The notes under the pieces are model-generated. The model worked only from the letters and a program-made list of their open reading frames with translations, was not told the DNA's origin and searched no databases. Below are positions 1 through 57,821 of a DNA stretch of 64,000 nucleotides, piece after piece. Origin of the DNA: a virus; the IMG/VR virus record IMGVR_UViG_3300048912_000204, one strand, 5' to 3'. A program made the translations under genes and the position numbers. Each line of letters starts with the position of its first letter. Position 1 is the stretch's first letter.

Positions 1-701
1 GTCACGGAACCGGCGGGCAGGACCAGACCGGTCGCGTTGACGGTCCCGTTGACGGTGACGTTGCCGTTGACGGTGCCGCCCGTGGTCCGGTCCAGGAACT
101 TGGACGTGGCCCAGGACCGGTCACCGTGCGGGTCGGCTCCTCCGGCATGCGCGGCAACGGCTGCTGCACCCGCTCCGGCGACCTCTGCGCCGATGTTGGC
201 CGGGGTGAGCGGGTCACTTCCCCCGGTGGCGTGAGAGGACTTGTGAGGCAGCGCGGTGACGGTTGCGGAGCCGTCCACGGTGAGGTTCCCGGTGACCCGC
301 AGGCTGCCGTTGACGGTGCCTCCGCTGACGTTGCCGCCCCCGGTCGGCCCGACGGGGATGAGCGCGCCCATGCTGACGGACGGGGTGTTCTTGGTGAGGG
401 AGATGTGGAACGGATCGGGGGTGGGGACCCCGCTGAAGTTCATCTCGACCTTGTACGTCCAGCCGGTGGGGCTGATACCGGTTGCGTCCGGTGCAAGGAG
501 GACGGCGCTGTAGTTGCCGTCGGCATCGCAGTCTGCGGCGACCGCTCCGATGATCTGCGTGCTGGTGGCCGTGGCCACGATCCACGGTGCGTCAGGAGTG
601 AAGACGACCCGCCCGGTGAGGGGCTGCGGGGTGCCTCCGGTTCCGGGGCGCGTGGCCCGTCCGGTCACGGTCACGGTGGCTAAGCCAGGGGGTAACGCCA
701 T
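1..701 (-). CDS. Virion fibre/minor tail-like protein, truncated at the window edge
   Basis: Manual translation from ATG 701 (GGAG RBS): MALPPGLATVTVTGRATRPG...GWTYKVEMNF...HKSSHATGGSDPLTP. The N-terminal domain and the HxxSHAxGGSD motif are shared with 823..2292. Absent from the ORF track because it runs off the edge. Confidence 0.7.
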   Translation of the reverse strand, partial: MALPPGLATVTVTGRATRPGTGGTPQPLTGRVVFTPDAPWIVATATSTQIIGAVAADCDADGNYSAVLLAPDATGISPTGWTYKVEMNFSGVPTPDPFHISLTKNTPSVSMGALIPVGPTGGGNVSGGTVNGSLRVTGNLTVDGSATVTALPHKSSHATGGSDPLTPANIGAEVAGAGAAAVAAHAGGADPHGDRSWATSKFLDRTTGGTVNGNVTVNGTVNATGLVLPAGSV

Positions 702-41285: not shown

Positions 41286-42884
41286 TCAGTAGTCGTACTG
41301 CTCGCCCCAGAGGGAGGCGAGCTTCTTGTCTTCCTGGGCCGCCAGGGCTTCGACGTCGTCGCGGTCCGGGGAGTAGCTGTGACCCCGTTCACGGGCGAGG
41401 TCGATGTAACCCGTGGCGGAGTCGAGGAGCTGCCGCACAACGGCTGCTGCGTCCACGGTCTCGATGCCGCCGATCGCGTTGGAGAACTCCAACGTGGCTG
41501 CGGGTCCGGCCAGCAGGACCGGACGGGCCAGGTCGACCAGCGCGGCCGGGACGCCCTTGCGGACGTAGTCGGCCTTGAGGCTGTCGAACTGCTGCGCGGC
41601 GAGCTGGGACTGAAGGACAGCCACCTGGTTGGACAGGGCGACGACCTCGGGGCCCGCCTCGTTGGACAGGGAGACCGCTCCGGCTCCGACCAGCTCGCGG
41701 GATTCGGCCGGGGCCTCCTCCTGGACGGCTGCCGCCTGCTCTTCAGCGATGGCGGCGGCCTCTTCGGATCCGGCGGCCTGTGCGGCAGCGTCCTTGGCCT
41801 CGGCCTCGGCCCACAGCTTGGCCATCTCCTCGTCAGAGAAGCCTTCCAGGGAGTCGTCCTCCCCGAGCGTGGGGTCTTCGGTGCCCAGGCCGCTGTTGAA
41901 GTCGCCGGAGGCCAGGCGTTCGACCAGTTCGTCGTCCGTCGGCTCGGCCGTAACCTCGGCGACGGCCTCGGTCTCCTCGGAGACGGTCTCTTCGGCGGTG
42001 GCCTCGGTCTCGTCGGTGTTCTCCGCGCCGGTCTCGGTGTCGAGGCCCAGTTCGGCGGCCAGCTCGTCCAGTTCGGCGTCCGAGAGGGCTTCGACGGCGG
42101 CGGCGATGTCCTCCTCGGAGGGGATCCCGGCCTCTGCTTCGGCGTCGGCGAGGAAGTCGGCTTCACCCGGCTCTTCGATGAGTTCGTCGTCGTCCACCTC
42201 GGCGGTGGCGGTTTCGTCGGTGTCGAAGGCGGAGCCGAAGATTTCCAGCTCGTCGTCCGTCATTCCGAGGGCGTCCAGCGCTTCGGGGGTCATTCCGGCA
42301 GCCGTGGCCACCTGCTGTAAAAGGTCGGCACGTGTGGCCATGTGCTCCAACTCCTCGTAAGAGGTTGCGGACAGGTCGATCACGTTTTCCGCCGGACCTC
42401 CGTTGGACAGCGCCACCTCTTCCCAGGTGCCGAGTCCTGGAATGACCGGGTCTAACGTGCCCAGAACATGCTGAAGCGCCCGGGGGAAATGTTTCCCGTC
42501 CGAGCGCTGGTAGTTTTCGAGGATGCGGGCGGACACGCCTAACTTCGGGTTCTCGTCCAGAACCTTGGCTGCGTCCGGGGTGACCTGGAAGACGGCGTAC
42601 AGGCCGTCTTCATCGACCTCTACTGACTTGACCTCGCCACGGAACCGCTCGGGGTCGAGGGTGTGGGAGTTGTTGTCGGGGGCCATCATGAAGGCCACCT
42701 GGTCGTAGGCGCCCTGATGGAAGGAGTTCGCCAGGTCGGTGAGGTAGGCGTCATCGAAGCGGATTTTGCGGCCCTTGTAGTTGATCGTGGCCTTCGGGAG
42801 GATCCTCTTGCGATACACCTTCTGGGACAGCGCGATGGCGGCACCGTCGTCCTGAGGGGACAACAGTAATTCGCTCTCGGGCAT
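41286..42884 (-). CDS. Mu gpI-like prohead protease fused to acidic scaffold
   Basis: N-terminal protease (H in NSHT, GVSA serine, LQHVLGTLDPVIPGL) followed by a very acidic coiled-coil scaffold region. Confidence 0.82.
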   Translation of the reverse strand: MPESELLLSPQDDGAAIALSQKVYRKRILPKATINYKGRKIRFDDAYLTDLANSFHQGAYDQVAFMMAPDNNSHTLDPERFRGEVKSVEVDEDGLYAVFQVTPDAAKVLDENPKLGVSARILENYQRSDGKHFPRALQHVLGTLDPVIPGLGTWEEVALSNGGPAENVIDLSATSYEELEHMATRADLLQQVATAAGMTPEALDALGMTDDELEIFGSAFDTDETATAEVDDDELIEEPGEADFLADAEAEAGIPSEEDIAAAVEALSDAELDELAAELGLDTETGAENTDETEATAEETVSEETEAVAEVTAEPTDDELVERLASGDFNSGLGTEDPTLGEDDSLEGFSDEEMAKLWAEAEAKDAAAQAAGSEEAAAIAEEQAAAVQEEAPAESRELVGAGAVSLSNEAGPEVVALSNQVAVLQSQLAAQQFDSLKADYVRKGVPAALVDLARPVLLAGPAATLEFSNAIGGIETVDAAAVVRQLLDSATGYIDLARERGHSYSPDRDDVEALAAQEDKKLASLWGEQYDY

Positions 42885-43031
42885 CCCGTTACCTCACTTC
42901 ACTTTCGACTGCGCATCATCTTAACTGACTAGTCCCAGTATTGGCTATCATGCGCCCTTGAATCAAGCAATACCAGGATGAGCTGGGCATGCTTTTTACG
43001 GGCTATTTCCGCGGGCTATTTCAGTGGGCCT

Positions 43032-44840
43032 TTATCGGCGTTCCAGGGAAATCCAACTGCCTGCGCCCAGCGTCGCCGTCTGCCCTGCGGTTCCCGAGGC
43101 GAACGTGACCGTCAGGTTCCCGGCCGTTCCGGTAGTGATCAAGGACCCCGTGAGCATCGCCGTCTTGTTGGCGCCGGACCCGGACCATGTGTCGATCGAG
43201 GAGATGAGCGGGAAGCTCGTCGCCACCGAGTCGCCCCAGATCATCGTGGCGCCGGACGGCCCCGTGAAGCCGTGGGTGAAGGACACACCCGCCGGGGACT
43301 GGATGACCAGGCAGCCGCGCAGCAGGTACGTGGTGTTCGCCTCCACGGCGATGACGAGCTGCGTGGAGGCGGTCTGCGCGGTCACGGTGACGTTCTGGGC
43401 CGTGGACGCCAGCGCGGACAGGGTGTTCTGGATCACGATGATCGCGCCGTTGGCCTGGCGCACCTTCAGGGTGTTGTTCTCGCAGTACATGACGGCGGCA
43501 TTGGGGTTGGCGTTGGGGACCGTGGTGGCGTTCGTGAACGCGATCAGTGCGCCGTTGCCTCCGCCGAACGATCCGGACGACCCCATGCGCAGGTTCGCCA
43601 ACTGGCTGGTTCCGGAGGCCGTGAACGACGTGCCGGTGAAAGTCGTGCCCGTGAGGCCGCCGGTCAGGGTGCCGCCTGAGAGCTGGAGGTAGCGGGCGTC
43701 GCCCAGCGTCTGGGTCAGATAGCGGGCGTCGTTCGGGTCACCCGTGGTGCCACCGCCGATGTTGCCCCGGACCAGGCTGCCCGCGCCTGCGAGTTCCAGC
43801 GGGCCCTGCGCCAGGGTGCCGGAGACGATCAGGGTGTTGCCCTGGATGTTGTTGCTGCCGGTTCCTCCGGTGCTCTCCTCGCGGATGAGGGAGCGCCCGG
43901 CGCCGTTGGTCGGGGCCGAGCGGATGGTGTTGCCCTGGACGACGTTGTTGATCGCACCGGACTCCAGGCGGATGCCGGAGGCGGTTCCGGCCGTGCCGAG
44001 GGCGCCGACGCCGAAGATCGTGTTGGAGGTGGCAGTGCAGTTGGGGGCGGCGATGAAGACGGCGTCCCCTCCGAGGCTGTCGAAGGTGCAGCCCAGGAGC
44101 TGTGTGCTGCCGACGGTCTGGATGCGGATGCCCTTGGCGGCGTTGGTGCCGCCGCCTACGAAGTTGCATTCCGAGACGGTCTGGAAACCGGCCAGGTCCA
44201 GGATGTGCACGGCGGTTCCGGTGCCGGTGCCGCCGGAGCCTCCGAGGGTTTCGAAGTCGCAGCCGATGATCTGGTTCTCGGTGCTGGACGACATGGTCAG
44301 GCCGCGTCCCGGGCCGGTCGAGCCGGTGGAGTTGTCGAAGAGGCAGCCGATGACGCGGTTGTTGTGGCCGAAGCTGCCGCCGGACATGCCGCCGAGGTAC
44401 AGGGCGTCGTCGCGGCAGGCGGTGAAGTGGACGTTGTCGAACCGGCAGGCGATGGCTCCCAGGGCGTTGATGCCGCCGGAGCTGCCGAGGGTTCCCTGCG
44501 AGAGGCAGTTGCCGTCGATCGTCAGGTCCCGCATGGTAATCCGGGTGTCGGCCCCGGTCATCTGGAAGATGTAGCAGTTCTTGTTGGCCTTGAGCTGAAT
44601 GCGGGTGCCCCATCCGGCGCCGAAGATGCTCAGGCCCTCCCCGGCCGGGATGCTGATCGTGGAGGAGACCGCGTACGTACCGGCGGGTAAGTAGACGGAG
44701 GTGTGCGCGGAGGACGCGTCGTTGATCGCGGCCTGGAGTGCGGCCGTGTCGTCGGCCACCCCGTCGCCGATCGCTCCGTATGCGGGGCTCTTGACGTTGA
44801 TGCCAGCGGACGCCCAGGGGCCCTCGATCATGTAAGCCAT
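43032..44840 (-). CDS. Right-handed beta-helix (pectate-lyase-3-like) fibre/spike protein
   Basis: YGAIGDGVADDTAALQAAI N-terminus and repeated GN(T/N)I beta-helix turns; C-terminal module shared with 823..2292. Confidence 0.82.
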   Translation of the reverse strand: MAYMIEGPWASAGINVKSPAYGAIGDGVADDTAALQAAINDASSAHTSVYLPAGTYAVSSTISIPAGEGLSIFGAGWGTRIQLKANKNCYIFQMTGADTRITMRDLTIDGNCLSQGTLGSSGGINALGAIACRFDNVHFTACRDDALYLGGMSGGSFGHNNRVIGCLFDNSTGSTGPGRGLTMSSSTENQIIGCDFETLGGSGGTGTGTAVHILDLAGFQTVSECNFVGGGTNAAKGIRIQTVGSTQLLGCTFDSLGGDAVFIAAPNCTATSNTIFGVGALGTAGTASGIRLESGAINNVVQGNTIRSAPTNGAGRSLIREESTGGTGSNNIQGNTLIVSGTLAQGPLELAGAGSLVRGNIGGGTTGDPNDARYLTQTLGDARYLQLSGGTLTGGLTGTTFTGTSFTASGTSQLANLRMGSSGSFGGGNGALIAFTNATTVPNANPNAAVMYCENNTLKVRQANGAIIVIQNTLSALASTAQNVTVTAQTASTQLVIAVEANTTYLLRGCLVIQSPAGVSFTHGFTGPSGATMIWGDSVATSFPLISSIDTWSGSGANKTAMLTGSLITTGTAGNLTVTFASGTAGQTATLGAGSWISLERR

Positions 44841-45104
44841 CAGGCACCCCGCCCGGGTAAGTCGCTTGGCATCCCGTTTACCCCCACTAGATAGATCCAT
44901 CTCATGTTACGGGTTCAATGCCCGATTTCCTACGCCTGGAAGGCTTCCCTCCAGCTTCTTGCAGCGTTGCTTGCAGTGCTGGCTGTAGAGGGCTCGGGCA
45001 GGGGTCGGCAGCCGTCCACGAGGCGGTTACCCCATTCTGAAAGATGAGGTCGCCCCCTCCCCCGGGCGTGTGCGCGCGTACACGTACATGGATCACATCT
45101 CAAA

Positions 45105-45295
45105 ACAGGGTAACGAGGTAACTCACATGCATTTACGCAGGTCAGAGCACATATTTGGGTTACTTTTTACGAGGTAACTTAGGGGTAACTAGAGGGTAAC
45201 CAGGGCTGTTCCATGATCAACTAGCCAAGACTTTGTCCTGACATTTGAGCGACCAAGATCAAGTTACTTCCCTGGTTACCCCGCCGAAGTAACCG
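45105..45295. repeat. Iteron-like GTAAC repeat cluster, putative replication origin
   Basis: Nine GTAAC cores in both orientations (GGTAAC at 45109, 45117, 45173, 45184, 45195) in an AT-rich non-coding stretch. Confidence 0.6.
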
Positions 45296-45394
45296 TGGAC
45301 ACCTTGTGATCACGTGTTAGGGTGTGCCCCTGAAACGTAAGAACCCCCGACCGGCGGTCACCAGTCGGGGGGCTACTGAGAGGGCAAGCTCTCT

Positions 45395-47218
45395 ATGACG
45401 GAGAATATCTCCCCTACCACCCCGGCAGCAACCACCCTCGCCGCCACCCCGGTTACGAAAGCCACCCTCGACACGGGCTGGCTGATGACCCGGGACAACG
45501 TCGTCCACGTGATCACGCGTGGACGCGACCCCCAGGACTCCTCCCAGTACATCCTGGACGAAGAACCCTACGGTGATTTCGACATCGTGGCACTCGGCAT
45601 CATCGCCGACGACAAGACCGAGCGCCGGGCCTGGGACGTCGTGATCGTCCGGCAGAGCGACGGCAAGGAGCTGCGCCGCATCCTGGACGAGAAAACCCTC
45701 GCGGACAGCAAGAGGCTGACGCTGTGGCTGACCTCGGCCGGAGTCTCCGTGATGTGCCCCGACGGCGCGCTCGGCGGCGGTGTTGCCCAGGGCGTGCGCC
45801 TGCTGCGCTACATCAACGCGCAGAAGCCGCCGGAGGCCACGATCGTGGACCAGGTGGGCTACCACCCCGACCTGAACGTTTTCGTGGCCCACGAGGGCGT
45901 CCTGCGCCCGGGAGACACCGCGTTCGACCCCAAGGCGCCCTACCGTCCCTCTGCGCAGCTCTCCACGTCCGGGGACGCCCCCTTCGCCTACGGGTTCGCG
46001 CCGAAGGGTCTGGAGGAGGTCCGGGACGTGCTGGCGCAGGTGCTGACGTTCCATGACGAAACGCCCCTGGCGGTCGCTGCGTCGTGGATGGTGATGTCCC
46101 TGGTGCAGTCCGCGATCATCCAGCACACGTCGCATTTTCCCGTGATGGCCATCGAGGCGCCGTCGGGGTCGGGCAAGACCACGGGTGCCCTGTCGATGCT
46201 CCGGCAGTTGCTCACGGGCAACACCTCCGGGCCCTCCCAGGGAACGATCCCCGACGTCCGCCAGAAGATCGCGTCCACCCGGTCCGGATTCGTCCACATT
46301 GACGACCTGGACGACCCGAAAGCCGTGTTCGAGATGCTGCGGCTGTCGACGGCCGACGGCACCAAGATGATGCGCTCGCACGCCTCGGGGTTCATGGCCT
46401 CCCAGCACTCCCAGCTCACCGGAACGATTCTGCTGACCGGCGAGTACCTGGGCCTGCGGTCCCAGAAGGCGCTGGTGGACCGGATTCTGATGCTGGAGCT
46501 GACGGACCCCACCAACCGCAAGTCCCAGATCCCCGGCCGGGAGCACATCTCCCAGTGGGCCGACGTGACGGCCCTGTCCCGCCGCTACCCGGGCAGTGAG
46601 GGCATGTCCGTCCTCGCGGGCACGGTCGTTGCGGAGATCCTGCGCTGGCTGGACGACATCGAAGCGCTGCTGGACGAGGTCAAGCCGTGCCCGGGACGTC
46701 TGGGTGACAAGTACGCGACGGTGCTGGCCGGGGCCTGCTTCGTGGATCACCTGCTCGGCGACTCCAAGGCGTGGATCAAAAAGGGTGATACGTACGCGCA
46801 GGTGATGGCCTGGGTCGAAGAGGACATGCAGTTCGCGAACTCCTGGGACAACGCCCTGACGACCGAAATCCTCCCCTGGGCCCTGCACGAGTACGGCGGC
46901 TGGGCCGGGGTGGACATCAACGCCTACGAACCGGTCAAGATCTCCGGCAAGACCTTCGTCACCGCGCCCGGCTTCTACAAGGAGGACGGGGACAACGGGG
47001 AGGGCATCTTCATTCACCCGCGCACCCTCGCCGACGCCTGGCGGGCCTACGTCGGTCACAAGGCCGAGGACCGTGTCCACTCGTCCGCCGCCATCGTCGC
47101 GCAGGCCAAGATCGCCGGGTTCGTGGAGAAGGTCATCAAGGTCCCCGGCGGCAAGTCCGTCAAGGGCTGGATCCTCCACGGCGACAAGGTGGAGATCATC
47201 CGCCAGCGCGCAAGCTGA
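45395..47218 (+). CDS. Replication P-loop NTPase/helicase (DUF927/Cch-like) without an obvious primase domain
   Basis: Walker A APSGSGKTT, Walker B VHIDD, LRLSTADG; 607 aa with high GC3. Confidence 0.75.
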   Translation: MTENISPTTPAATTLAATPVTKATLDTGWLMTRDNVVHVITRGRDPQDSSQYILDEEPYGDFDIVALGIIADDKTERRAWDVVIVRQSDGKELRRILDEKTLADSKRLTLWLTSAGVSVMCPDGALGGGVAQGVRLLRYINAQKPPEATIVDQVGYHPDLNVFVAHEGVLRPGDTAFDPKAPYRPSAQLSTSGDAPFAYGFAPKGLEEVRDVLAQVLTFHDETPLAVAASWMVMSLVQSAIIQHTSHFPVMAIEAPSGSGKTTGALSMLRQLLTGNTSGPSQGTIPDVRQKIASTRSGFVHIDDLDDPKAVFEMLRLSTADGTKMMRSHASGFMASQHSQLTGTILLTGEYLGLRSQKALVDRILMLELTDPTNRKSQIPGREHISQWADVTALSRRYPGSEGMSVLAGTVVAEILRWLDDIEALLDEVKPCPGRLGDKYATVLAGACFVDHLLGDSKAWIKKGDTYAQVMAWVEEDMQFANSWDNALTTEILPWALHEYGGWAGVDINAYEPVKISGKTFVTAPGFYKEDGDNGEGIFIHPRTLADAWRAYVGHKAEDRVHSSAAIVAQAKIAGFVEKVIKVPGGKSVKGWILHGDKVEIIRQRAS

Positions 47219-47230
47219 CCCCGAGAACGC

Positions 47231-47265
47231 GAGACCCCCGCCGGACGTATCCGGCGGGGGTCTTC
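47231..47265. terminator. Bidirectional terminator between convergent genes
   Basis: AGACCCCCGCCGGA-CGTA-TCCGGCGGGGGTCT stem. Confidence 0.7.
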
Positions 47266-47275
47266 TGCTGCAAGG

Positions 47276-47497
47276 TCAGGAAGCGGGGTTCCGCTTCGCC
47301 AGCCGCTCGCGGACCGCCTTCTTCACCATGTCCGTGCGGCCCCGGCGCTGACGGGCCTCCTGCTCCCGGGCGAACGCCGCACGCTCCTCGGCGGTCACCG
47401 CCACCGGGATCACCTGCATCTGCATGCGCTCCTGGACCTGGGCGATGTGCTCGTCCAGCCCTGCCTGGTCGTTGTCGTTGCTCTCGGGACCGCTCAT
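47276..47497 (-). CDS. Small hypothetical protein (73 aa)
   Basis: GGAG RBS; directly follows the 1697-aa gene. Confidence 0.55.
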   Translation of the reverse strand: MSGPESNDNDQAGLDEHIAQVQERMQMQVIPVAVTAEERAAFAREQEARQRRGRTDMVKKAVRERLAKRNPAS

Positions 47498-47548
47498 GAA
47501 CCGTCTCCTAGTAGTTCCTGCCAGTGTAGAACCGCTTGCCTGTTCGGA

Positions 47549-50500
47549 CTAATCCCATTCGTCGGTGGGGACGATCTCCACGACGATGTAGCGCTTGCCG
47601 CTGTACGGCTTGGTTCCGTCCGGCGGGGACGCCTGGTCCGAGACCACCCGGTACTTGGTGCCGCGCGGCAGCAGGATCTCCTGCTCGTGGGAGAACTTGG
47701 ATCCCGTCGCGTAGTTGGCGTCGATGACCTTGTGCCCCTTGGGGATGCGGACTTCCATCCACACGTTGCCGCTGAAGGCGTTCTTGTCCTTGGCCGTCGA
47801 ACCGTACGCCAGGTCCTGGTAGACGTTGCCGGGGTCCATCGGCGGCGGGAAGTCCGGGAACTGGCCGTTGGTGCCCATCTTGCGGACCGTGACGAGGTCG
47901 TGGGCCAGCGGCGGCGCCTGCCGGAACGCGTCGTCCATGTGCTTGATGGTGTCGTCCCAGTCACCGCCCGTGGCCCCGACCGGCGGCGTGATCATGGTGC
48001 CGTCGTAGTCGAAGTGGCCGCGAAGCTGACCGTTGATCTCCGAGTGCTCGTGACCCGTGTACGTGTACACGGCGGACGACGCCTTGCCCTTGGGCTTCCA
48101 GCCGTTGCCGATGTCCACACCGTTGGTCGCGGCCGTGTACCCGGCGGCGTGTGCCCCGGCGAACTGCGTCTTGGTGTGCGCCAGGACCGCGTCTTCGTCG
48201 CCCGCCTCGGCGGCCGTCATCCCCTTGGGGACCGCCTTGGCCGGGTCGAAGGACGCCGGATCGAACGGCGAGCTGTAGTGCGCGTCCCAGTCCTTCTTCG
48301 CCTGCTTGTACAGGGCGATCTGCGCCGGGGTCGCGTTCGGGCCGTGGGCCTGGTCGTACAGCTTCTTCAGCAGTACCGCGTTCGCCTTCTTGGTGATACC
48401 CAGGCCGGTGTACTTGACCTCCGGAGCCGTCACCACGTCGGGCGAAAGACCCTGGCTCTTGAGGTACGTCTTCGGCGAGTTCTGGGCCTGCGCGATGTCC
48501 AGCGTGGACGCGCCCGCCTTCTCGGCGGCTTCCTTGAGGTCGATGGACTTGTCATAGTCCCAGTGGTCACTGTTCTGCGGCAGGTTGTGCTCGGCCAGGG
48601 CCTTGAGCGCCGCCTGCTTGGCGGAGAGCGAACCGGTACCGGACGGTGCCGCCGCAGCCGCAGCCGTCGCCGGGTTGTTCTGCTTGTCCAGTTCGGCCTG
48701 GGCCTCGGTGTTCCAGTGCTTGTTGATGACGCCCTGCTTGAAGTCAGCGAACGCCTGCGGGTTCTCGTTCTTCCACTTGGCGAACTCCTCCTTCGTGAAG
48801 TTCTTGCCGCCGTAGTTCTTGGCCATCCACTCGGCGGCGAGCTTGGCCTCCTTCTGCGTCTTGAACTTGTGCGAGCCCATCTTCATGCCGTCGGCCTGCG
48901 TCACCGACCAGCCGGAGCCACCGAGGGCCTTGTGGACCACGAGGTTCTTGGGACCGGCCACGCCCTGGGACATGTGCGTGTTGCCGTCGGCGTCCTTGAC
49001 CCCGTGCTCCACCTTGGACCACTTGGCCTTCGGCTTGAACGGGTCCGTCTTCGGGCCGGACGGGGCCGCCGGAGCCGACGCGTCCGCCTCAGGGGCCTTC
49101 TTCTCCGCCGGAGCAGCCGCGCTCTCCTTGGCCTTCAGCGCCTTCAGCGTCTCGTCCGACTTGTAGTACGCCGCGTGGATCTCGTCGGGGGTGGCCCCGG
49201 CGTTGATGGCGGCGTTCTCCAGCTTCTCGGACGTCTGGTGGTTCCAGTCGGCGGTGTTGTCGTCGTGCTCGTGCGCGGCGAGCGCCTTGAGCGCCTTCTC
49301 CTTCTCCGACAGGCCCTGGGGCGCCGGAGTAGGTGCAGAGGACTTGGAGACCTTGTCCAGGAACGCCTTCGGGTTCTGGATGGCGGCGATGACTTCCTTG
49401 GGGTCCGCGCCCAGGTCGATGGCCTTCTGCTTCAGGGTCGTGTATTCGCCGGGCTCCCACTCTTCCCCGGAGGCCATCTTCTCGGCCATGGTCTTGATCA
49501 CGGCGTCCTTCGCCGACAGACCGGAGTCCTTCGCAGAAGGCGACGGGGCCGAGGGGCTGTTGGCGAGGAAGGCGTCCGGGTCCTTGACCACGGAGGTGAT
49601 TTCCGCCTTCGTGGCGCCCGCCGCGAGAGCCTTCGACTTTGCGACCTTGTAGTCGGTCTCGTTCCAGTCGTTGTCATCGATCTTCATCATCTCGGCGATG
49701 GCCTTGAGCGCGGCGTCCTTCTCCGCCGAACCGCCGGAACCGGCCTCCGGGGCATCGGCAGCCTTGGCCGCCTTCTGCGCCGGAGCAGCGCCCTGCTTGC
49801 CCTTGTCGGGCAGGTCGTCGTAGAGCTTCTGGAAGTCCTTGCCCAGGCTGTTCTTGTGGGCAACGATCTTGTCGAGGAACTTCTCCTCGGTGTCGACGCC
49901 GCCCGGGAACTTGTGGCCGCTCGCGAGGGCCTGCTTGGCGTACGGGGCGAAGAGCCGCTTGAACTCCTCGTCCGGCATGTCCTGGATTGCCTTGATCGTT
50001 TTGGCGAACTCGTTGTCCCCGGACGGGTCCGGGAGCTGGATCTTGCCTTCCTTGGCAGCCTGCCACAGGGCGGGGTACACGGCCGAGTGCGCGTTCGGGC
50101 CGTACGTGGTCAGCGGGTCGCCCTTGGACTTGCCGCCGTCGCCCTTGTACGGGTCGCCGTTGGAGGCGCCCACGGTGTACTTGAACGCCTGGCCCTGGTC
50201 GATCGACATGAGGCCGGTCGACGGGGACTTGATCCACTGGCCGTTGTGGGAGTCCTGGTTGCCGGTGGCGTAGTCCAGCACCTGGTGCTGGAGCATCTTC
50301 ATGATGTCCTCGGGGGGCATCTTCGCGGCCATGTCGGCGTTGAACTTGTAGCCCGGGAACGCGTCCTCGGCGCCGGGGATCATGCCCTGGAGGTGACCGT
50401 CCTTGGTCTTCACGAACACCGGGGTCGGCAGGCCGACCTTGCGGTGCAGCGCGGCGACGGCGGGGTCAAGGCTGCGGGAGTACTCGTCCGTCTTCGCCAG

Positions 50501-52642
50501 CCACAGGTTCCCGTCCTCGTCCTTCATCAGCTTGCTGCCGTGGGAACCGAGCGTCTTGCCGGTGTACGTCAGCTTGCCGACCGGCTTGAGAACCTTGCCG
50601 TCGTCGGCCGCGTCGACCTTCTTGACCGGAGCGGACGGAGCCTCGGCGGCCTTCTTGGTCGCGGCGGCGTCGGCCGCGTCACCGTGGTGCTGGACCAGGT
50701 TCTTGAACTTGTTGACGGCCCAGTCCTTGGGCTCGTCCTTGTCCTGCTCCGCCTTGAGGGCCTTCGCAGCCGCCTGACCGGCCGCCTGGTGGTCCTTGTG
50801 GTCCCCGGTGATCTCGGCGATGGACGACAGCGCGTTCGCCTTCATGGCGGGGCTGTCCGCCTTGTCGGCGAGTTCCGCGACCTTCTTGTAGTTCTCGATC
50901 GCCTTGTCTTTGTCCCCGGCCGTCAGGGCGTCGTCAGCGGCGTTGAACGCCTGCCCGGCCTGCTGGAGCGCCTGCGACTTCTCCGACTCGGCCTTGGCGG
51001 CAGCAGTGGCCTGCTCGCCGTGCTGGGTCGCCTTGGCCATGTGGCCCTGGGCGGCCTCCTTGTGGTCCGCCGCCAGGCCCTGGAAGCCCGCGTCCAAGGC
51101 GGCCTTCTCCGCGTTGGAGTGCAGCAGGGCCGCTTCCAGGTGCTTGGCGTTCAGCGTGTCGTCGCTGGCCTTGGCGTAGGTCGCCTCGTGCACCTCGGAC
51201 GTCTTGGCGTGCGCCTTCTTGCCGTGGGCGTCGTACGCCTGCATCTTCGCGAGCGCTTCGGCGTTCTTCTTGTCGACCTCGGCGGCCTTGGCCTTGTACG
51301 AGGCGGCGTTCGCCTTGTGGTCCTCGGCCTCGTCGTGCAGACCGGCGGCCTTCGCAGCCTGGTGCGCCTTCTCGTACTTGGCGGCGGCGTCCTTGAACGC
51401 GGTCGACGCCGAACCCGAGTCCCCCAGCGCGTGGCCCTTGTTGGCGGCCTCGTCGGCGGCCTTGGCGTGCTTGGCGATCTCGGCCTGGGCCGCCTTCTGC
51501 TTGGCCTCGTGCTCGTCGTGCTGCTTCTGGAGCCCGGCCGCGATCTCCGCGTGCTTGGCCTCGTGCTGCTTGTGCTCGTTGACGGACTCGTCGTTGCCGA
51601 TCTGCCCGTGCGCGTTCGCAGCCTGCCCGTGCGCCTGGGCGGCCTGGTTGTGCGCGTGCGCCTGCGCGGCCAGCGGGGTGTCACCCTCCTCGCTGGCAAT
51701 CGACGCGCTCTTGGACTTCTTGTAGGCGCCGTCCGACATGGTGGCGGCGGCCTTGTCCAGTGAGTCGTGCGTCTTCTGCTGGTTCTCGGCGATCTTCTCG
51801 TGCTTGGCCACCGCTCCCGCGTGGGCCTCGCCGACGAACTTGTTCCCGGCCTCCTCGTTGGCGTGCTGCGCGTTCAGGTGCGCGGCAGCAGCCTTCGTGT
51901 GCAGCTCGGCGGCCTGCTTCGGCGTGTGGTTGCCGCCCTTGATCGAGGCGGTGAGTTCGTTCGCCTCGGCCGTGAGCTTGGTCGCCTTGGCCTTGGCGTC
52001 CGCCAGCTTCTTGGCCGCCGCAGCCTTCTCGGCCTCCAGCGCCTTGGCCGCGTCCTCCTTCGCACCCTGCTCCAGCTTCGTCGCCTTCGAGGCGTGGATC
52101 GCGGAGTGCGCGGAGTGCGTGAGGACACCCGACTTCAGGCCGTCCTTGCCCATGCCCTGGAAGTGGTGGGCGGCGTCGGCGTGCTGAGTCGCCGCGACCT
52201 TGTGGGCCGCCGCCAGAACGGCCTTGGAAGCGCCGGACTCTTCGAGCTTGTGCACCATGTTGGTGGCGCGCTCGGCCTTCTGGACGGCTGCCTTCGCCGC
52301 TTCCTGCTTGGCCGCGACACCCGCCGCGCCCTTCTTGACCTCGGCCTCCCAGTCCGCCTTGGAGGCGTACCGGTTGACGGCCTTGAAGGAGATCTTGCCG
52401 TCGGCGCCCTTGACGAAGTGGCCGGTGGTGTGACCGCCGGAGATGTGGCCGTGCTGACGGGCGAGACCGCCGCCGGACAGACCACGGGAGGGGATCAGGG
52501 GGTTGATCAAGATCCATCCGTGGCGGTATCTAAATGCAAGGGCGCCAGCGGGATTTTTCGAGAAATCTAAGGTGTGAGCGTCAACAACCCTCACATTCTT
52601 AGGTAACACCCCGACGAACGCTAACTCATATTCCACGTTCAC
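47549..52642 (-). CDS. 1697-aa multidomain head-associated protein: Ala/Lys/His-rich stalk, PI3/4-kinase/HipA-like kinase domain, helical repeats, C-terminal VIP2-like ADP-ribosyltransferase
   Basis: Kinase: WLAK...DYATGNQDSHNGQW...IDQG (about 49800-50560). ART: TVRK, YGSTA, HEQEILLPRG (about 47550-48070). Confidence 0.75.
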   Translation of the reverse strand: MNVEYELAFVGVLPKNVRVVDAHTLDFSKNPAGALAFRYRHGWILINPLIPSRGLSGGGLARQHGHISGGHTTGHFVKGADGKISFKAVNRYASKADWEAEVKKGAAGVAAKQEAAKAAVQKAERATNMVHKLEESGASKAVLAAAHKVAATQHADAAHHFQGMGKDGLKSGVLTHSAHSAIHASKATKLEQGAKEDAAKALEAEKAAAAKKLADAKAKATKLTAEANELTASIKGGNHTPKQAAELHTKAAAAHLNAQHANEEAGNKFVGEAHAGAVAKHEKIAENQQKTHDSLDKAAATMSDGAYKKSKSASIASEEGDTPLAAQAHAHNQAAQAHGQAANAHGQIGNDESVNEHKQHEAKHAEIAAGLQKQHDEHEAKQKAAQAEIAKHAKAADEAANKGHALGDSGSASTAFKDAAAKYEKAHQAAKAAGLHDEAEDHKANAASYKAKAAEVDKKNAEALAKMQAYDAHGKKAHAKTSEVHEATYAKASDDTLNAKHLEAALLHSNAEKAALDAGFQGLAADHKEAAQGHMAKATQHGEQATAAAKAESEKSQALQQAGQAFNAADDALTAGDKDKAIENYKKVAELADKADSPAMKANALSSIAEITGDHKDHQAAGQAAAKALKAEQDKDEPKDWAVNKFKNLVQHHGDAADAAATKKAAEAPSAPVKKVDAADDGKVLKPVGKLTYTGKTLGSHGSKLMKDEDGNLWLAKTDEYSRSLDPAVAALHRKVGLPTPVFVKTKDGHLQGMIPGAEDAFPGYKFNADMAAKMPPEDIMKMLQHQVLDYATGNQDSHNGQWIKSPSTGLMSIDQGQAFKYTVGASNGDPYKGDGGKSKGDPLTTYGPNAHSAVYPALWQAAKEGKIQLPDPSGDNEFAKTIKAIQDMPDEEFKRLFAPYAKQALASGHKFPGGVDTEEKFLDKIVAHKNSLGKDFQKLYDDLPDKGKQGAAPAQKAAKAADAPEAGSGGSAEKDAALKAIAEMMKIDDNDWNETDYKVAKSKALAAGATKAEITSVVKDPDAFLANSPSAPSPSAKDSGLSAKDAVIKTMAEKMASGEEWEPGEYTTLKQKAIDLGADPKEVIAAIQNPKAFLDKVSKSSAPTPAPQGLSEKEKALKALAAHEHDDNTADWNHQTSEKLENAAINAGATPDEIHAAYYKSDETLKALKAKESAAAPAEKKAPEADASAPAAPSGPKTDPFKPKAKWSKVEHGVKDADGNTHMSQGVAGPKNLVVHKALGGSGWSVTQADGMKMGSHKFKTQKEAKLAAEWMAKNYGGKNFTKEEFAKWKNENPQAFADFKQGVINKHWNTEAQAELDKQNNPATAAAAAAPSGTGSLSAKQAALKALAEHNLPQNSDHWDYDKSIDLKEAAEKAGASTLDIAQAQNSPKTYLKSQGLSPDVVTAPEVKYTGLGITKKANAVLLKKLYDQAHGPNATPAQIALYKQAKKDWDAHYSSPFDPASFDPAKAVPKGMTAAEAGDEDAVLAHTKTQFAGAHAAGYTAATNGVDIGNGWKPKGKASSAVYTYTGHEHSEINGQLRGHFDYDGTMITPPVGATGGDWDDTIKHMDDAFRQAPPLAHDLVTVRKMGTNGQFPDFPPPMDPGNVYQDLAYGSTAKDKNAFSGNVWMEVRIPKGHKVIDANYATGSKFSHEQEILLPRGTKYRVVSDQASPPDGTKPYSGKRYIVVEIVPTDEWD

Positions 52643-52658
52643 AAGCGGTTCGCTCCTT

Positions 52659-53174
52659 TCAGCGTGCCGTCTTCGAGCGGTAGTAAGAGCGGTCCGCTGT
52701 CCGCTTTGCTTCCAGTTCCTCGGGCGTCCAGGACGCCCGACGTGCGGCTGCCTTGTCCCTCATGCAGGCCAGGCAGTAGCGCCGGTTCTTCTTGTCCCGA
52801 CGCGTGTTCTCCGGGGTGTACTCGTGCTGTTGAGGGCAGTGAGTCTTTCGACCGTTCCCGTTCTGGGTGCCCCGTGCTGCGTGCATGCGACGCTTGTTCT
52901 CTTCTGGTGTCACCCATTCGAGGCAGTCCGGATTTACACAGTTGCGGACCCTGCACAGGTGATCCGGCTCCAGCCCTTCCGGGCAAGGACCGACCAGCAG
53001 TTCCCAGACCAGCCGGTGAACCCGCCAAATCTTCAGCTTCCACGTCACCACGGCGTAGCCCGATTTGCTGGTATCTCCTGTCCAGCGCCAGCAGATCCCA
53101 TCGGGTTCTACTCGCGCCCACAGTCGTTCCTCGCGCTGAGCATCCGTCACCATCATGAGATAAGTATACCTCAT
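52659..53174 (-). mobile_element. HNH homing endonuclease
   Basis: CWRW...GYA...VHRLVWE...DHLCRVRNCVNPDCLEWVTPEEN, then KTHCPQQHEY...YCLAC. Confidence 0.88.
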
Positions 53175-53195
53175 GATGATAGCGGAAAGCGCAGG

Positions 53196-55088
53196 TCAGA
53201 GGCACTTTTTGCCCTTCTGACGCCGCTTCTTCTGCGCCTTGATCGCCGCATCCGCCAGGTAGCGCTTCGGATACTTCGTGGTCAGGCTGTTGACTGTGAG
53301 CCGTGCCCCGTCCTGGGAACTCCCGGTGGGTACGGTGACCTGCTCCGATGCCATGGGCTGGGACAGGTTGACGTTGTTGCGGAGGTTGTCCTTGATCTCT
53401 TCCTGCTGGGCCTCGTAGTGGTCCAGCAGCCGGACCTGGGTCGGGGTTAGCGGCCGACCGGCCTTCTTGTCCGCGAGGGCCTGACGGGTGGCGTCGGAGA
53501 TCAGCTTCTGCTTGGCCTTGGCCTTCGCCGCCTTCTCCTTCGCCGCCTGCTTCTGCGCCCGGAGCTTGGCCACCTCCGCCTTCTTCTTGGCCATCTCCTT
53601 GGCGTGCGCGGCCTTCTTGGCGGCAGCCGCCTTGGCCCGCGCCGCCCGCTTGGCCTCGGCCTCGTGGTGCTTCTTGGCGGAAGCGGCCTTCTTCGATGCC
53701 TTCTTGGCGTCGGCGGTGGCCTTGTTCTTGTACGCCTGGGCGATGGCCGCCTTGGTGGCGTCGGTGTGACCGGTCATGTCCTTGATCTCCTGCGCAGACT
53801 TGTCTTTCTGCGAGGGACCGACGGGGTTGCCGTTCTTGTCGACGGGGACCCAGTTGTGTTTCCAGCCGACGGCGCCCGGGGGGAGCTGGTGCTTGCCGTG
53901 CGGGTTGTCCTTCGGCTTCTTGTCCTTGGCCTTCGGCTTGTGCGCCTTCTCCGGCCGGGGGCCGGAGGATCCCGCGATATCCGCCGGGACGGCCAGGTCG
54001 ATCGCAGAGGAGCCGTCCAGGACGGCTCGCAGGAACGTCATCGGCTGGGACAACGTCACCTCCTCCCCCGGGTCGGATGCTGCGTGGGTAACGGTGACCA
54101 CGGGGAACTCTCCTTCGTGTGAGACGTGTGTGACGTGCAGGCGGGTGCCGCGCGGCAGGACGGTTTCGTCTCCCCGGACGGGGATGATCGGGGCGCCCTT
54201 GCGGCCTTGGATGCGGAAGAGAACCTTTTTGCCGGTCTCGTGTCCGCGTTCGTGCATGTAGTACTCCGCCACGTCCCGGGAGAACGCGGCGGATCCGTAG
54301 CCCTTGTCGTGCAGGACGGAGCCGGGCGTGAGCGCGGCGATCTGGTCGTCGGTGAGGGAGGCCCCGCGCCACAGGTCGGCGTCCCGGCTCAGGGACGCCT
54401 TGGCGGCCACCGAGTCGAGTCCCTTGTTACGGGCCTCCTCCTCGGCGTCCAGGGCTTCCCCGTTGCGCAGCTTGCGGTTGATCCGCAGCGTGTCCTTGTC
54501 GAAGGCCACGTAGTCGTTGACGGCCGCGTGGTCACTCTTGCCCAGAACGGCTTCCCGCAGATGGGTGTTGCCGCCCGGCAGGGAGTCTGTGTCGGCGTCC
54601 GATACGGCCTTGCCGTGCACGGCGACGTTGGCCCAACTGCCCTTGTGGTCAACGGTCGGGTAGGGGCGGTCTTCGCCCTCTTCCTCTTCGGCCATGGCCA
54701 GCAGAGCCTTCATGGCGTCCATGGCCGACCACTTGCCGTCCGGGGTGCGGGGCTCGTCGGGGTTGAAGTTCGCCAGCTTGACCGTACGGCCCTTGTTCGG
54801 TGTCGCGTGGGCCCTGGCCTTGGAGGCTTCCCAGTCGGCCAGGGCGGCGGATGCGGCAGCGCGTACTTCGGGGCGGACGTTGCCGCGCCCGGAGGCCCAG
54901 TTTTTGATGGTGCCGAGGGCCGTGGCGATGGCCCGGGACTTGTCCATGCCCCGCTTGGTCATCAGGCTGTGCGCGATGTTTTGCACGTACGGCGGAAGGC
55001 TCAGGGAGCGGTCCCCGAAGAGACCGGGTCCTCCCGGCTTCCCGAGCGGGTGCGGTGTGACCGCTAACGCCGCTGTCTCGGCACTCAT
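53196..55088 (-). CDS. 630-aa head-associated protein with VIP2-like ADP-ribosyltransferase domain
   Basis: INRKLR...LWRG...GYGSAA...GDETVLPRGTRL (about 54120-54540); FNPDEPRTPDGKW and GWKHNWVPV motifs; Lys/Ala-rich C-terminus. Confidence 0.75.
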   Translation of the reverse strand: MSAETAALAVTPHPLGKPGGPGLFGDRSLSLPPYVQNIAHSLMTKRGMDKSRAIATALGTIKNWASGRGNVRPEVRAAASAALADWEASKARAHATPNKGRTVKLANFNPDEPRTPDGKWSAMDAMKALLAMAEEEEGEDRPYPTVDHKGSWANVAVHGKAVSDADTDSLPGGNTHLREAVLGKSDHAAVNDYVAFDKDTLRINRKLRNGEALDAEEEARNKGLDSVAAKASLSRDADLWRGASLTDDQIAALTPGSVLHDKGYGSAAFSRDVAEYYMHERGHETGKKVLFRIQGRKGAPIIPVRGDETVLPRGTRLHVTHVSHEGEFPVVTVTHAASDPGEEVTLSQPMTFLRAVLDGSSAIDLAVPADIAGSSGPRPEKAHKPKAKDKKPKDNPHGKHQLPPGAVGWKHNWVPVDKNGNPVGPSQKDKSAQEIKDMTGHTDATKAAIAQAYKNKATADAKKASKKAASAKKHHEAEAKRAARAKAAAAKKAAHAKEMAKKKAEVAKLRAQKQAAKEKAAKAKAKQKLISDATRQALADKKAGRPLTPTQVRLLDHYEAQQEEIKDNLRNNVNLSQPMASEQVTVPTGSSQDGARLTVNSLTTKYPKRYLADAAIKAQKKRRQKGKKCL

Positions 55089-55531: not shown

Positions 55532-56152
55532 CTATTTCCTTCTCAGATGTTCCGGAAGGGCCGTCACCACTGGTTTTCCTTCGTAGGCGGGAAGGGGGTA
55601 GCAGCGGCAGCGCGGGTGTCTTCCTCCGGGGTGCAGTCCTTCCGGGGGTGTGCTCGCGGAGTAGTTCTTTCCGATAAGCCACCGACAGTCGGGGGTGGTG
55701 TTGTCGTCCAGAATTCCGCCCCAGCCGAGAGTGTCGCTGGATGTGGTGGTCTGCATGTTCACGGAGCCCTTGGCGGCGGCTATCCGGCGGGCGCACGCCT
55801 GTTGGTGCTGGGCGAACAGAGCCTTCTCCCGGGCGAGGGCTTTGCCCAGGTCAGGGGCGTCTGCGAGGCGTCGGACGGCTGCGGCGAGGTAGGCGGCCCG
55901 GTAGCGCATGTTCTCCCGGCGGGCTGCGGCGACGGGGTCCGTGCCTTTTGCGAGGGCCTTCTTACCGGGCTTGTACTTCATCGCGGCGAGGATCCCGAGG
56001 ACGAGCTTTTTCGGGGTTTTCAGCACAGCGGAAATAGCCTGTATTGCGGCGATGAGAGGAGGTCCCGCCAATAACACGGCGAGAACAGCCGCGATCTCGG
56101 CATCGTGCTGAGAAGGGGCCTTTTGGGCTATTTGCTGGTCTTGCTCGTCCAT
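55532..56152 (-). CDS. MuF-like minor head protein
   Basis: WGGILDDNTTPDC...HPGGRHPRCRC motif; follows the portal. Confidence 0.82.
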   Translation of the reverse strand: MDEQDQQIAQKAPSQHDAEIAAVLAVLLAGPPLIAAIQAISAVLKTPKKLVLGILAAMKYKPGKKALAKGTDPVAAARRENMRYRAAYLAAAVRRLADAPDLGKALAREKALFAQHQQACARRIAAAKGSVNMQTTTSSDTLGWGGILDDNTTPDCRWLIGKNYSASTPPEGLHPGGRHPRCRCYPLPAYEGKPVVTALPEHLRRK

Positions 56153-56240: not shown

Positions 56241-57821
56241 TTATTTGCCCTTCCCGGCACCCTGACTACCGGTGGAACCCTTTGCCGCAGCGGCCTTCTG
56301 CTGGACCATCTTCGCGGCCTTGTTGATGCTCGCCCCGGCCTTCGCCAGCTCCGCCTTGCGCTGCACGTTCGCAGCCCCCACGGCCGCGCCCGACTGCGGG
56401 CCGCCCTGGGCCGCGAGCTGCTTCTGCGCGTCCAGACCCGTGCGCTTGGTCTCCAGCTCCAGGTCCATGCGCTCGTCAATGCGGTCGGCGAGCTGCTTGA
56501 ACTCCTGGTTGACCTCTTCCATCGGCATGTCGAGGTAGGTCCCCATCATGCGGGTCAGCTCCGTCATGAACGCCTGGGGGACGCGGAGTTCGGTCGGGGT
56601 CGTGCCGAACGCCGTCAGCAGCTCCTTGACGACGGTCAGGTCACCCTCGGACAGCGGCCCGAACTCGAACGTCGGGCAGACCGCGCCGGGGCCGAAGTTG
56701 TACATGACCAGGTCGGCGATCACGTAGTTCGTGATCGATTCGGCCAGCTCCCGCGCGGTGCCCGTCAGGGACTGGAGGAAGAAGTCGCTCTGGTCCTTGG
56801 ACAGGGCGTACGAACCGCCGGGGCTGTCGGGCAGGTTGGTGAACCCGGCCAGCACGGACGCGGCCATCTGGTTGTCCAGGTAGTCGATGAACTCCTTGAA
56901 CAGGGCGGCGGCCCCGGTGCCCAGCTCCAGCGTGCTGATGTCCGTCTCGGTCGACGTGCCCAGCACACCGCCGTTCTTCAGGTGCCGCAGCGCCTGCGCG
57001 TACTGCCGGGCCCGGGTCTCGTCCTCGGCCCGCACGACGTACCGGCCGGTGGCGTTGGCCTCCAGGAACGTCGCCCAGAGGAACAGCACCTTCTGCTTCT
57101 TGTCGTGGAGCCAGTAGATCAGCTCCATGTCGGAGTGACCGCGCGCGGCGTTGATGTGCTGGTTGTTCAGGTGCACCCAGGCGTACTGGGCGGGGATGTC
57201 CACCCAGATGTCCGGCCAGATCTCCCCGCCGACCGACACCGGGCGCTGCCGGAAGCCCCGGAACGCGCCGGACTTGGGGTCGCGGGCGATGGCCGTGGTG
57301 GGTGAGGGGCGGAACGCCAGCCGGTCGTAGACGACCTTGCCGTCCTTGTCGGTGAAGACCTTCTCGAAGCAGGCCTTGCGGTAGGTACGCGCGGAGAGAG
57401 CCTGCGCGATGACCAGGCGCATCGGGGTCTTCATGCCGCCCTGGTTCGCCGGGGTCGTCAGCGCCTTGGTGACGAACTCGGCCTCGCCCTTGTCCCCCGG
57501 TCCGGCGACGATCTTCCACGGCGCGGAGCGGATCGGGAGGGTGAGCACCTGCTGGATCGTGCGGGCCTTGCCGTCCTTGGCGAGCATTTCGTCAAGGGAC
57601 AGCGACCCCCATTCGTCCTCGTCCAGGAGAATGCGGCCGGGGATACCGGACCACGATGCGACATAAGCGTCGGTTGTGGTGAAAAGGCTACCGGCCTCCG
57701 TGTCAAGAACGACGTCGGGAGCCCCCTTCACCGTCTTGGTCGGTGCGGCCTTTTCAGGCGCGTTACCCGACGCGTAAAAGGGTGCCGATAACGGCACATC
57801 GCCAGCCTGCTCTGCGCCCAC
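56241..57821 (-). CDS. Portal protein (DUF935/Mu gp29-like)
   Basis: Follows terL; YRKACFEKVF, GHSDMELIYW, GSYALSKDQSDFF motifs. Confidence 0.88.
   Translation of the reverse strand: MGAEQAGDVPLSAPFYASGNAPEKAAPTKTVKGAPDVVLDTEAGSLFTTTDAYVASWSGIPGRILLDEDEWGSLSLDEMLAKDGKARTIQQVLTLPIRSAPWKIVAGPGDKGEAEFVTKALTTPANQGGMKTPMRLVIAQALSARTYRKACFEKVFTDKDGKVVYDRLAFRPSPTTAIARDPKSGAFRGFRQRPVSVGGEIWPDIWVDIPAQYAWVHLNNQHINAARGHSDMELIYWLHDKKQKVLFLWATFLEANATGRYVVRAEDETRARQYAQALRHLKNGGVLGTSTETDISTLELGTGAAALFKEFIDYLDNQMAASVLAGFTNLPDSPGGSYALSKDQSDFFLQSLTGTARELAESITNYVIADLVMYNFGPGAVCPTFEFGPLSEGDLTVVKELLTAFGTTPTELRVPQAFMTELTRMMGTYLDMPMEEVNQEFKQLADRIDERMDLELETKRTGLDAQKQLAAQGGPQSGAAVGAANVQRKAELAKAGASINKAAKMVQQKAAAAKGSTGSQGAGKGK

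Follow-up and report, generated by a model that had tools for sequence, protein, structure and literature searches.

Predicted prohead-protease sites at module borders of a protease–scaffold protein and a head cargo protein of an actinophage

Prohead-protease processing of head-internal proteins is established in T4 and in phiKZ-like giant phages, in which the enzymes (T4 gp21, phiKZ gp175, and SPN3US gp245) cut after Glu (L/I-x-E, or S/A/G-x-E). Alt of T4 is an ADP-ribosyltransferase (ART) that is packaged as cargo with the DNA (PMC5512222, PMC10052503). In herpesviruses, the protease is fused to the scaffold; the R site is located after the protease, cleavage at the M site removes ~37 C-terminal residues (37 in pseudorabies virus), and these proteases, the assemblins, have a catalytic triad in the order His-Ser-His with Ser-His-His chemistry (PMC4498786). 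In this study we analyzed 64,000 nucleotides of viral DNA (IMG/VR record IMGVR_UViG_3300048912_000204; the whole stretch is designated as the window), in which a short motif, Val/Ile-x-Leu followed by Ser/Ala ([VI]xL[SA]), recurs at module borders of two proteins, the 532-amino-acid (aa) P0001 and the 630-aa P0005. The window derives from a soil actinophage, and the tag at the module borders is most likely the cutting site of a herpesvirus-like head protease. We consider it probable that this protease is the phage's own prohead protease, which corresponds to residues 20–159 of P0001. A preliminary description of the window had proposed prohead-protease sites at module borders of the protease–scaffold protein and the head cargo, and comparative evidence supports this core claim, because the protease fold, the conservation of aligned sites, the modules bracketed by cassettes, the register of a shared N-terminal domain, and the co-occurrence of cargo and protease all point to it.

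P0001 gave no Pfam or PHROG match in profile scans, and a profile of the protease family found only chance-level matches among PDB sequences. We identified 277 homologues of P0001 and, with residues 1–185 as the query against 1.84 billion representatives, 742 representative clusters. An AlphaFold2 (AF2) model of the protease domain, built on a 63-sequence alignment, had a predicted local distance difference test score (pLDDT) of 89. VIA-align superposed this model on the varicella-zoster virus protease (Z 11.1; root-mean-square deviation (rmsd) 2.6 Å, 111 residues aligned), the pseudorabies protease (Z 10.4), and T4 gp21 (Z 9.2; rmsd 3.2 Å over 115 residues), and Foldseek returned the same group from the PDB (top 48 all herpesvirus proteases, then T4 gp21; E 1.5e-4). 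The best Swiss-Prot model for the domain was the FluMu I protein of a Mu-like prophage. PF10123 (Mu-like_Pro) was weakly matched by 9 of the 63 homologues (best E 3e-4), yet P0001 itself had no match to this family at E ≤ 1 and reached no Pfam threshold; with FluMu I as its best structural match, it is therefore a distant relative and not a recognized member. According to the model, the P0001 protease belongs with Mu gpI-like enzymes in the herpesvirus-assemblin/T4 gp21 fold. His74, Ser118, and His139 are invariant in the 63-sequence alignment and follow the His-Ser-His order of assemblins, and they probably form the catalytic triad. The "protease" named in the preliminary description is thus real, a distant member of the assemblin/gp21/Mu-I fold as seen from the AF2 model, the structure searches, and the invariant His-Ser-His. 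A complex prediction for the domain (aa 22–156) with the junction cassette of P0005 scored 0.02, without controls, and counts neither for nor against recognition. Short family members, considered as natural stand-alone protease domains ending at an R-like site, proved to be largely fragments or gene calls with frameshifts and provided no information on this point.

We located the sites by translation and a regular-expression scan. All ten strict matches listed previously lie where they had been placed: IALSQ (aa 17), VALSN (157), IDLSA (169), VSLSN (404), VALSN (415), and IDLAR (494) in P0001, and VKLAN (103), VTLSQ (344), IDLAV (363), and VNLSQ (573) in P0005. P0001 has two more, VDLAR (450) and VLLAG (456). 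Their conservation was assessed in a MAFFT alignment of 120 P0001 homologues. At site 1 (IALSQ), Leu is found in 110 sequences and Ser in 108. The columns of site 2 (the VALSN after the protease) hold Trp in 119, Val in 110, Leu in 118, and Ser in 113, and those of site 3 (IDLSA), which begins 12 residues further on, hold Asp in 116, Leu in 91, and Thr or Ser in 119. The next two sites appear as x-S-L-S-N (L 104, S 100, and N 90 of 120) and I-[DE]-L-A-N among gapped, variable columns, and IDLAR at aa 494 has nearly invariant flanks (G-Y-I-D-L-A-R-E-R-G-H). Taken together, Leu and Ser/Ala are retained at each P0001 site in 90–118 of the 120 homologues, even within variable gapped linkers, and the alignment thus indicates that the sites are maintained. 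The positions are also informative. In most structural matches the aligned range is 19/20..159. Since the Leu of IAL|S is residue 19 and that of VAL|S is residue 159, this range coincides with L19|S20 and L159|S160, and the motif marks both borders of the fold. Site doublets occur three times in the window, two bracketing the ~230-residue acidic linker of P0001 and one in P0005. Compared with the linker in the 368-aa homologues from 54-kb Streptomyces phages, that of P0001 has ~160 additional aa.

By analogy, the self-processing layout would have its closest precedent in herpesvirus UL26, and the processing of cargo in T4 gp21 with IPI–III and Alt. Like UL26/UL26.5, P0001 begins with a protease of the same predicted fold (Z up to 11.1), which is followed by a linker and, at the C-terminus, by a presumed assembly domain. 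At the sequence level, the R/M layout has its counterparts in VAL|S (aa 157–160) at the end of the fold and in IDL|A (aa 494–497), an M-site analogue 36 residues before the C-terminus. In the herpesvirus sites, P3 is likewise hydrophobic and P1' is small (YLQA-T and VQA-S in pseudorabies virus), and the invariant H74, S118, and H139 suggest the Ser-His-His chemistry of assemblins. The differences are that the predicted P1 residue is Leu (Met and Phe tolerated) instead of Ala, that the P0001 domain comprises only 140 residues, lacks the dimer helices, and is 10–14% identical to assemblins, that a long acidic linker separates the site doublets, and that the code is also present on separate cargo proteins.

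P0005 consists of an N-domain, an ART-like block, a junction cassette, a basic Lys/Ala module, and a C-terminal tail, and at the sequence level it has a recurring motif at its module borders, as T4 IP/Alt-type processed cargo does. The basal plan of its homologues is a 95-residue N-domain, the junction cassette (V-x-L-S-Q-P-M, 14 further residues, and A-[VI]-[ED]-L-A), a basic region with a GW motif and a long Lys/Ala helix, R-N-N-V-x-L-S-Q-P, and a short tail. The ART-like block is missing from most of them; in P0005 it sits between VKL|AN and the cassette. In the cassette, V, L, S, Q, P, M, and L are invariant in 14 homologues, and the whole unit is duplicated around inserted modules in P0128, P0138, P0142, and P0145. 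P0128 has the ART-like block, another module, and three cassette copies, P0142 has the cassette in tandem, and P0138 and P0145 have a large module beyond the C-terminal site that is ended by another V-A-L-S-Q-P. The site aligned with VKLAN is IFLAN in gp8 of phage LazerLemon and V-x-L-S in other homologues, and the VNLSQ region (R-N-[ND]-V-x-L-S-Q-P) is conserved in 18. In the AF2 model of P0005, pLDDT falls below 50 at aa 96–108, 335–412, and 576–597, and all four sites lie in or at the edge of these segments; with a mean pLDDT of 58.6, the model was too poor to confirm the ART fold by structure search. The assignment of the ART-like block is weak: it scored 19.3 bits against PF03496 (E 7.8e-4), under the 23.4-bit cut-off, although the 72%-identical P0128 passed with 33.8 bits. 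Its catalytic loop is G-D-E, not E-x-E; the loop of the ART domain in the 1697-aa protein P0004 is E-Q-E. In public gene calls P0005 starts 34 codons downstream (596 aa, P0127); the longer form of 630 aa is favored by the homologous proteins of relatives and by the conserved start M-SAET. Short motifs, F-N-P-D-E-P-R-x-P-D-G-K-W or G-W-K-H-x-W-x-P, often open modules just past predicted sites (P0005 aa 108–120 and 405–416), and aa 30–47 of P0004 contain F-R-Y-R-H-G-W-I-L, a counterpart of the latter. These may be module-start signatures.

The N-domain provides an insight into the bond that would be cut. It is terminal in 20 proteins, which start with M-S-A-E-T, and internal in 21. The residue directly before the internal SAET is Leu in 16, Phe in 3, and Met in 2, and 17 of the 21 have V, I, or L two residues before that position (e.g., V-I-E-L|S-A-E-T). 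Given the terminal M-SAET and the internal [LMF]-SAET, the module naturally begins at the residue that follows Leu, namely P1'. This register would fit a mature product that starts at Ser, whether after Leu|Ser cleavage or after removal of the initiator Met, and it is predicted neither by a docking motif nor by a cut after Ser/Ala. The cut most likely falls between Leu (P1; Met/Phe tolerated) and Ser/Ala (P1'), with Val/Ile at P3. Elsewhere the N-domain is joined to ART, peptidoglycan-binding, zeta-toxin, and Peptidase_S78 domains, and the last three kinds of fusion would fit a role in addressing proteins to the head. In the metagenomic homologues P0156 and P0173, the N-domain is joined directly to an HK97-type Peptidase_S78 domain. 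The N-domain may be a general device that brings proteins, even a protease, into the prohead.

P0004 has no strict [VI]xL[SA] match in its 1697 aa (shuffle mean 1.6), and the depletion in P0004 and its relatives is not significant (P 0.05–0.6). The preliminary description had suggested looser sites near its N-terminus, YELAF and ALAF; these sequences are present, but they do not occupy homologous positions and we rejected them. TLDFS, 15 residues further on, is the position that aligns with the canonical sites of relatives. LazerLemon gp8 (1175 aa) and P0142 are single chains of what the window encodes as two genes; they are joined at V-L-D-F|A-K-N-P or V-L-E-L|A-K-N-P, and the join lies at a site or within ~25 residues of one. 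The P0004 start precedes the aligned T-L-D-F|S-K-N-P by 24 residues; a close relative has the canonical A-I-E-L|S-N-N-P at this place, and P0004 would therefore probably lose just a short N-terminal segment. Beyond TLDFS it has no candidate site, so the idea of a multiply cut polyprotein does not hold for P0004, which has at most one degenerate N-terminal site. The VPLSA proposed for the portal is likewise present, but it is absent from the portals of the close relatives L006 and L007 and from that of LazerLemon. As separate observations, the hydrophobic N-terminal helix of the MuF-like gene product (55532-56152) holds V-L-L-A-G-P-P, the same type of heptapeptide as V-L-L-A-G-P-A in the C-terminal domain of P0001, and the major capsid proteins of the distant relatives L004 (15011-15928) and L005 (20125-21036) end in V-V-D-L-A-G-A and I-V-L-L-S-G-V, which are motif-like 3–5 residues from the C-terminus; the capsid protein of the window has an unlike C-terminus.

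On the basis of these features, the following course of events can be proposed. The protease–scaffold protein and the cargo proteins would be built into the prohead, where the protease would then cut V/I-x-L|S/A. It would free itself at L19|S20 and L159|S160, the acidic linker would be excised or destroyed through the two site doublets, and the last 36 residues of the C-terminal assembly domain would be clipped off. P0005 would be cut into five products: the N-terminal targeting domain, a free ART-like module, a 19-residue spacer, the basic Lys/Ala module, and the C-terminal tail. We infer the cleavage, the exact bond, and the packaging and ejection of cargo; the gene position and the fused effector domains suggest the latter two.

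We examined whether the motif is more frequent than expected with 20,000 shuffles. P0001 has 8 [VI]xL[SA] matches versus a shuffle mean of 1.15, a count that none of the shuffles reached, and P0005 has 4 versus 0.78 (P = 0.006). For [VI]xLS[NQ], the counts are 4 versus 0.017 expected in P0001 and 2 versus 0.014 in P0005. The comparison with background that had been suggested as a check favors enrichment: the density of [VI]xL[SA] is 10.3 per 1000 aa in P0001 and P0005 taken together versus 1.5 in the other 56 gene calls. The only [VI]xLS[NQ] match in these 56 is VPLSN in a 278-aa protein (38913-39749, minus strand) and is probably a chance occurrence. Because the motif had been defined post hoc, we also scanned all 8000 single-residue a.bc patterns over P0001 and P0005 without bias, and V.LS ranked top (5 observed versus 0.34 expected, p = 3e-5).

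Several points weigh against cleavage by the P0001 protease. After Bonferroni correction, V.LS is not significant within the window (~0.24); therefore, the window alone is only suggestive and the case rests on the homologues. Among 260 representatives of the protease family, [VI]xL[SA] occurs 1175 times versus 170 expected (6.9-fold), with the reservation that motif counts across homologues are not independent events. The triad assignment is suggested by invariance and residue order. The blocks around VDLAR (450) and IDLAR (494) are strongly conserved, and these two sites may be kept for structural reasons. The major capsid protein, the annotated scaffolding protein, the MuF protein, and the portal have no conserved site, and the substrate set would therefore be narrow. 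Finally, we found no cleavage product, virion proteome, or N-terminus for this phage or any relative.

These points leave room for other explanations. An unlikely one is that the motif serves in docking or assembly, as a short linear element that is bound and not cut. It might add a β-strand to the protease, the scaffold, the capsid interior, or the portal and thereby recruit or arrange the head-internal proteins. A conserved motif in disordered linkers would suit any short linear motif, and the copies at aa 450 and 494 within conserved blocks of the P0001 C-terminal domain agree with binding; however, docking leaves unexplained why the free N-terminus of the N-domain is the residue after Leu, why the motif is present at both ends of the protease fold, and why genes split and fuse near the sites. 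It is improbable that the sites are cut by a different enzyme, such as a host protease or another phage peptidase. In favor of such an enzyme, no direct tie between the motif and the P0001 active site emerged here, but the motif is densest in the protease protein itself, where it marks both fold borders, and motif-bearing cargo co-occurs with the P0001 protease family in distant loci: L004, a prophage of Amycolatopsis taiwanensis, and L005, a metagenomic phage, both have N-domain cargo with sites and a P0001-family protease (E ~1e-45). In two proteins in which an HK97-type S78 protease is fused to the N-domain, the motif counts are 0 and 1, an anecdotal observation that also speaks against another peptidase.

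We give similarly little credence to the view that the junction cassettes are recombination joints or inert linkers without any proteolysis, as with the conserved peptides that bound the variable domains of polymorphic toxins. Modules lying between duplicated cassettes are the pattern expected from recombination at conserved joints, but the same motif is present at fixed, non-exchanging positions of P0001, the conserved core is just 4–7 residues, and the window sites vary at P2 and at some synonymous positions (Val GTG/GTC; Leu CTG/TTG/CTC). A role as a recombination joint and a role as a cutting site are, moreover, compatible with each other. The corrected p from the unbiased scan would leave space for a common tetrapeptide that recurs by chance in high-GC proteins rich in Ala, Leu, and Val, but such a recurrence is hardly credible in view of the shuffles of P0001, the position-by-position conservation in 120 homologues, and the 6.9-fold enrichment over 260 representatives.

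With cleavage by the head protease as the preferred explanation, the locus can be compared with the phage systems. T4 gp21, phiKZ gp175, and SPN3US gp245 resemble the P0001 protease in their fold (gp21, Z 9.2), and as prohead proteases they cut head-internal proteins (IPI–III and Alt in T4) at a short recurring motif. T4 cargo has an N-terminal targeting peptide of ~10 residues; the likely address here is a folded N-domain of 95 residues, and, unlike in T4, modules are exchanged between duplicated cassettes. Mu gpI/FluMu I (PF10123) resembles P0001 as the best Swiss-Prot structural match and in the gene order of Mu-type portal, MuF, protease, and capsid protein; unlike Mu gpI, P0001 falls under every Pfam threshold and the window has a separate small gene annotated as a scaffolding protein. 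The cargo also resembles MuF-domain polymorphic toxins (PMC5576092) and polyvalent proteins (PMC5512222), which are head-associated, have variable effectors (ART and others), and are encoded beside the portal. However, neither P0004 nor P0005 matched PF04233, and MuF is a separate 206-aa gene. At least part of the account of polyvalent proteins ascribes their processing to zincin-like metallopeptidases and not to a prohead protease (PMC5512222). A literature search (including the phiJoe, ArV2, and KS10 papers; it did not cover most subscription journals) found neither a cleavage specificity of Mu-I-like proteases nor any account of the motif.

A broader proposal, which we favor only slightly over its negation, is that a very large, unannotated Mu-I-like head-protease family (at least 742 clusters at 50% identity) shares one code, V/I at P3 and L/M/F at P1 followed by S/A. 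This code would define exchangeable capsid cargo modules (ART, peptidoglycan-binding/hydrolase, and zeta-toxin) addressed by the shared 95-residue N-domain with the mature N-terminus SAET, and the genes would be fused or divided at the cut sites or next to them, since nothing but the products of cleavage counts. The logic of T4 and the phiKZ-like phages would operate here in a different, uncharacterized branch of the protease fold, with a Leu|Ser/Ala rule that is nearer to the herpesvirus Ala|Ser. If this rule holds, it would give a function to a protein labeled as hypothetical in many cultured actinophages and account for the fusion, splitting, and module exchange of these genes at fixed joints. 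In addition, sequence would suffice to predict which mature cargo the capsids of actinophages and actinobacterial prophages contain, e.g., a free ADP-ribosyltransferase or a basic DNA-associated module. If the family-wide code is also true, the injected effector repertoire of such phages and prophages could be read from sequence.

The features are listed in Table 1. The window has a G+C content of 66%, and its late genes are on the minus strand. The gene order was derived from Pfam and PHROG scans, homology to relatives, and gene calling by G+C at codon positions.

Table 1. Positions of the genes, domains, and candidate sites within the window
Feature	Coordinates	Strand	Remarks
Large terminase	57880-59586	-	
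Mu-type portal	56241-57821	-	PF06074 (Portal_Mu), 5.9e-43
VPLSA, aa 9-13 of portal	57783..57797	-	Not supported as a site
MuF-like head morphogenesis gene, 206 aa	55532..56152	-	Homologous to PF04233-bearing genes of L006 and L007
107-aa gene			Between MuF-like gene and P0005 in gene order
P0005, 630-aa cargo protein	53196..55088	-	Translation, homologues, alignment
N-domain of P0005, ~95 residues, helical	54783..55088	-	Starts M-SAET; presumed head-targeting module
VKLAN, aa 103-107	54768..54782	-	Between N-domain and ART-like block
Inserted ART-like block, aa 108-343	54060..54767	-	
Junction cassette VTLSQPM...(14 aa)...IDLAV, aa 344-367	53988..54059	-	
Basic module, aa 368-572	53373..53987	-	GW motif and long Lys/Ala-rich helix (aa 443-542)
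VNLSQ, aa 573-577	53358..53372	-	Ahead of 53-residue C-terminal tail
HNH endonuclease gene	52659..53174	-	Between both cargo genes; translation; counterpart in L006 carries PF13392
P0004, 1697-aa protein, C-terminal ART	47549..52642	-	PF03496, 6.2e-13; zero strict sites
TLDFS, aa 24-28 of P0004	52559..52573	-	Degenerate candidate site; aligns with AIELS (L002), VLELA (P0142), VLDFA (LazerLemon gp8)
Primase/polymerase-like gene, 607-aa P-loop protein	45395-47218	+	
β-Helix tailspike-like gene	43032-44900	-	PF12708, tail-fibre PHROGs
P0001, 532-aa protein	41286..42884	-	Protease/acidic linker/C-terminal assembly-domain protein
Site 1, IALSQ, aa 17-21	42822..42836	-	N-terminal edge of protease fold; predicted cut L19|S20
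Protease domain, aa 20-159	42408..42827	-	AF2 model, structural matches, invariant His74/Ser118/His139
Site 2, VALSN, aa 157-161	42402..42416	-	C-terminal edge of protease fold, R-site analogue; predicted cut L159|S160
Site 3, IDLSA, aa 169-173	42366..42380	-	Latter half of first doublet
Acidic low-complexity linker, aa 174-403	41676..42365	-	Between two site doublets
Sites 4 and 5, VSLSN (aa 404) and VALSN (aa 415)	41628..41675	-	Second doublet, ahead of C-terminal domain
Conserved C-terminal domain, aa 420-532	41289..41627	-	Presumed assembly/scaffold-like; holds VDLAR 450, VLLAG 456, IDLAR 494
153-aa protein			Downstream of P0001 in gene order; match to "head scaffolding" PHROG
Major capsid protein	39841-40755		After 153-aa protein in gene order

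P0001 occupies the position of a protease in a Mu-type head module, with Portal_Mu and the MuF homologue before it and the capsid protein downstream, and the synteny of the head module is equal in LazerLemon and L004. P0001 was found on contigs of ~125–130 kb; the cultured relatives are 54-kb Streptomyces phages such as LazerLemon, whose P0001 homologue, gp13, is annotated as "hypothetical protein".

Two genes split the head module between the cargo genes and the protease gene, the tailspike-like gene (43032-44900) and the opposite-strand P-loop gene (45395-47218). The 607-aa product of the latter matches the C-terminal two thirds of a DNA polymerase/primase PHROG (6.4e-100). The relatives L002 and L003 keep the opposite-strand P-loop gene and have no tailspike-like gene. 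An HNH gene lies between the cargo genes in L006 as in the window; L007 has none, and its two cargo genes abut. Another HNH gene is located directly upstream of the protease gene in L002. The 278-aa protein encoded downstream of the capsid gene looks, by eye only, like an HNH-type endonuclease with repeated helix-turn-helix-like units.

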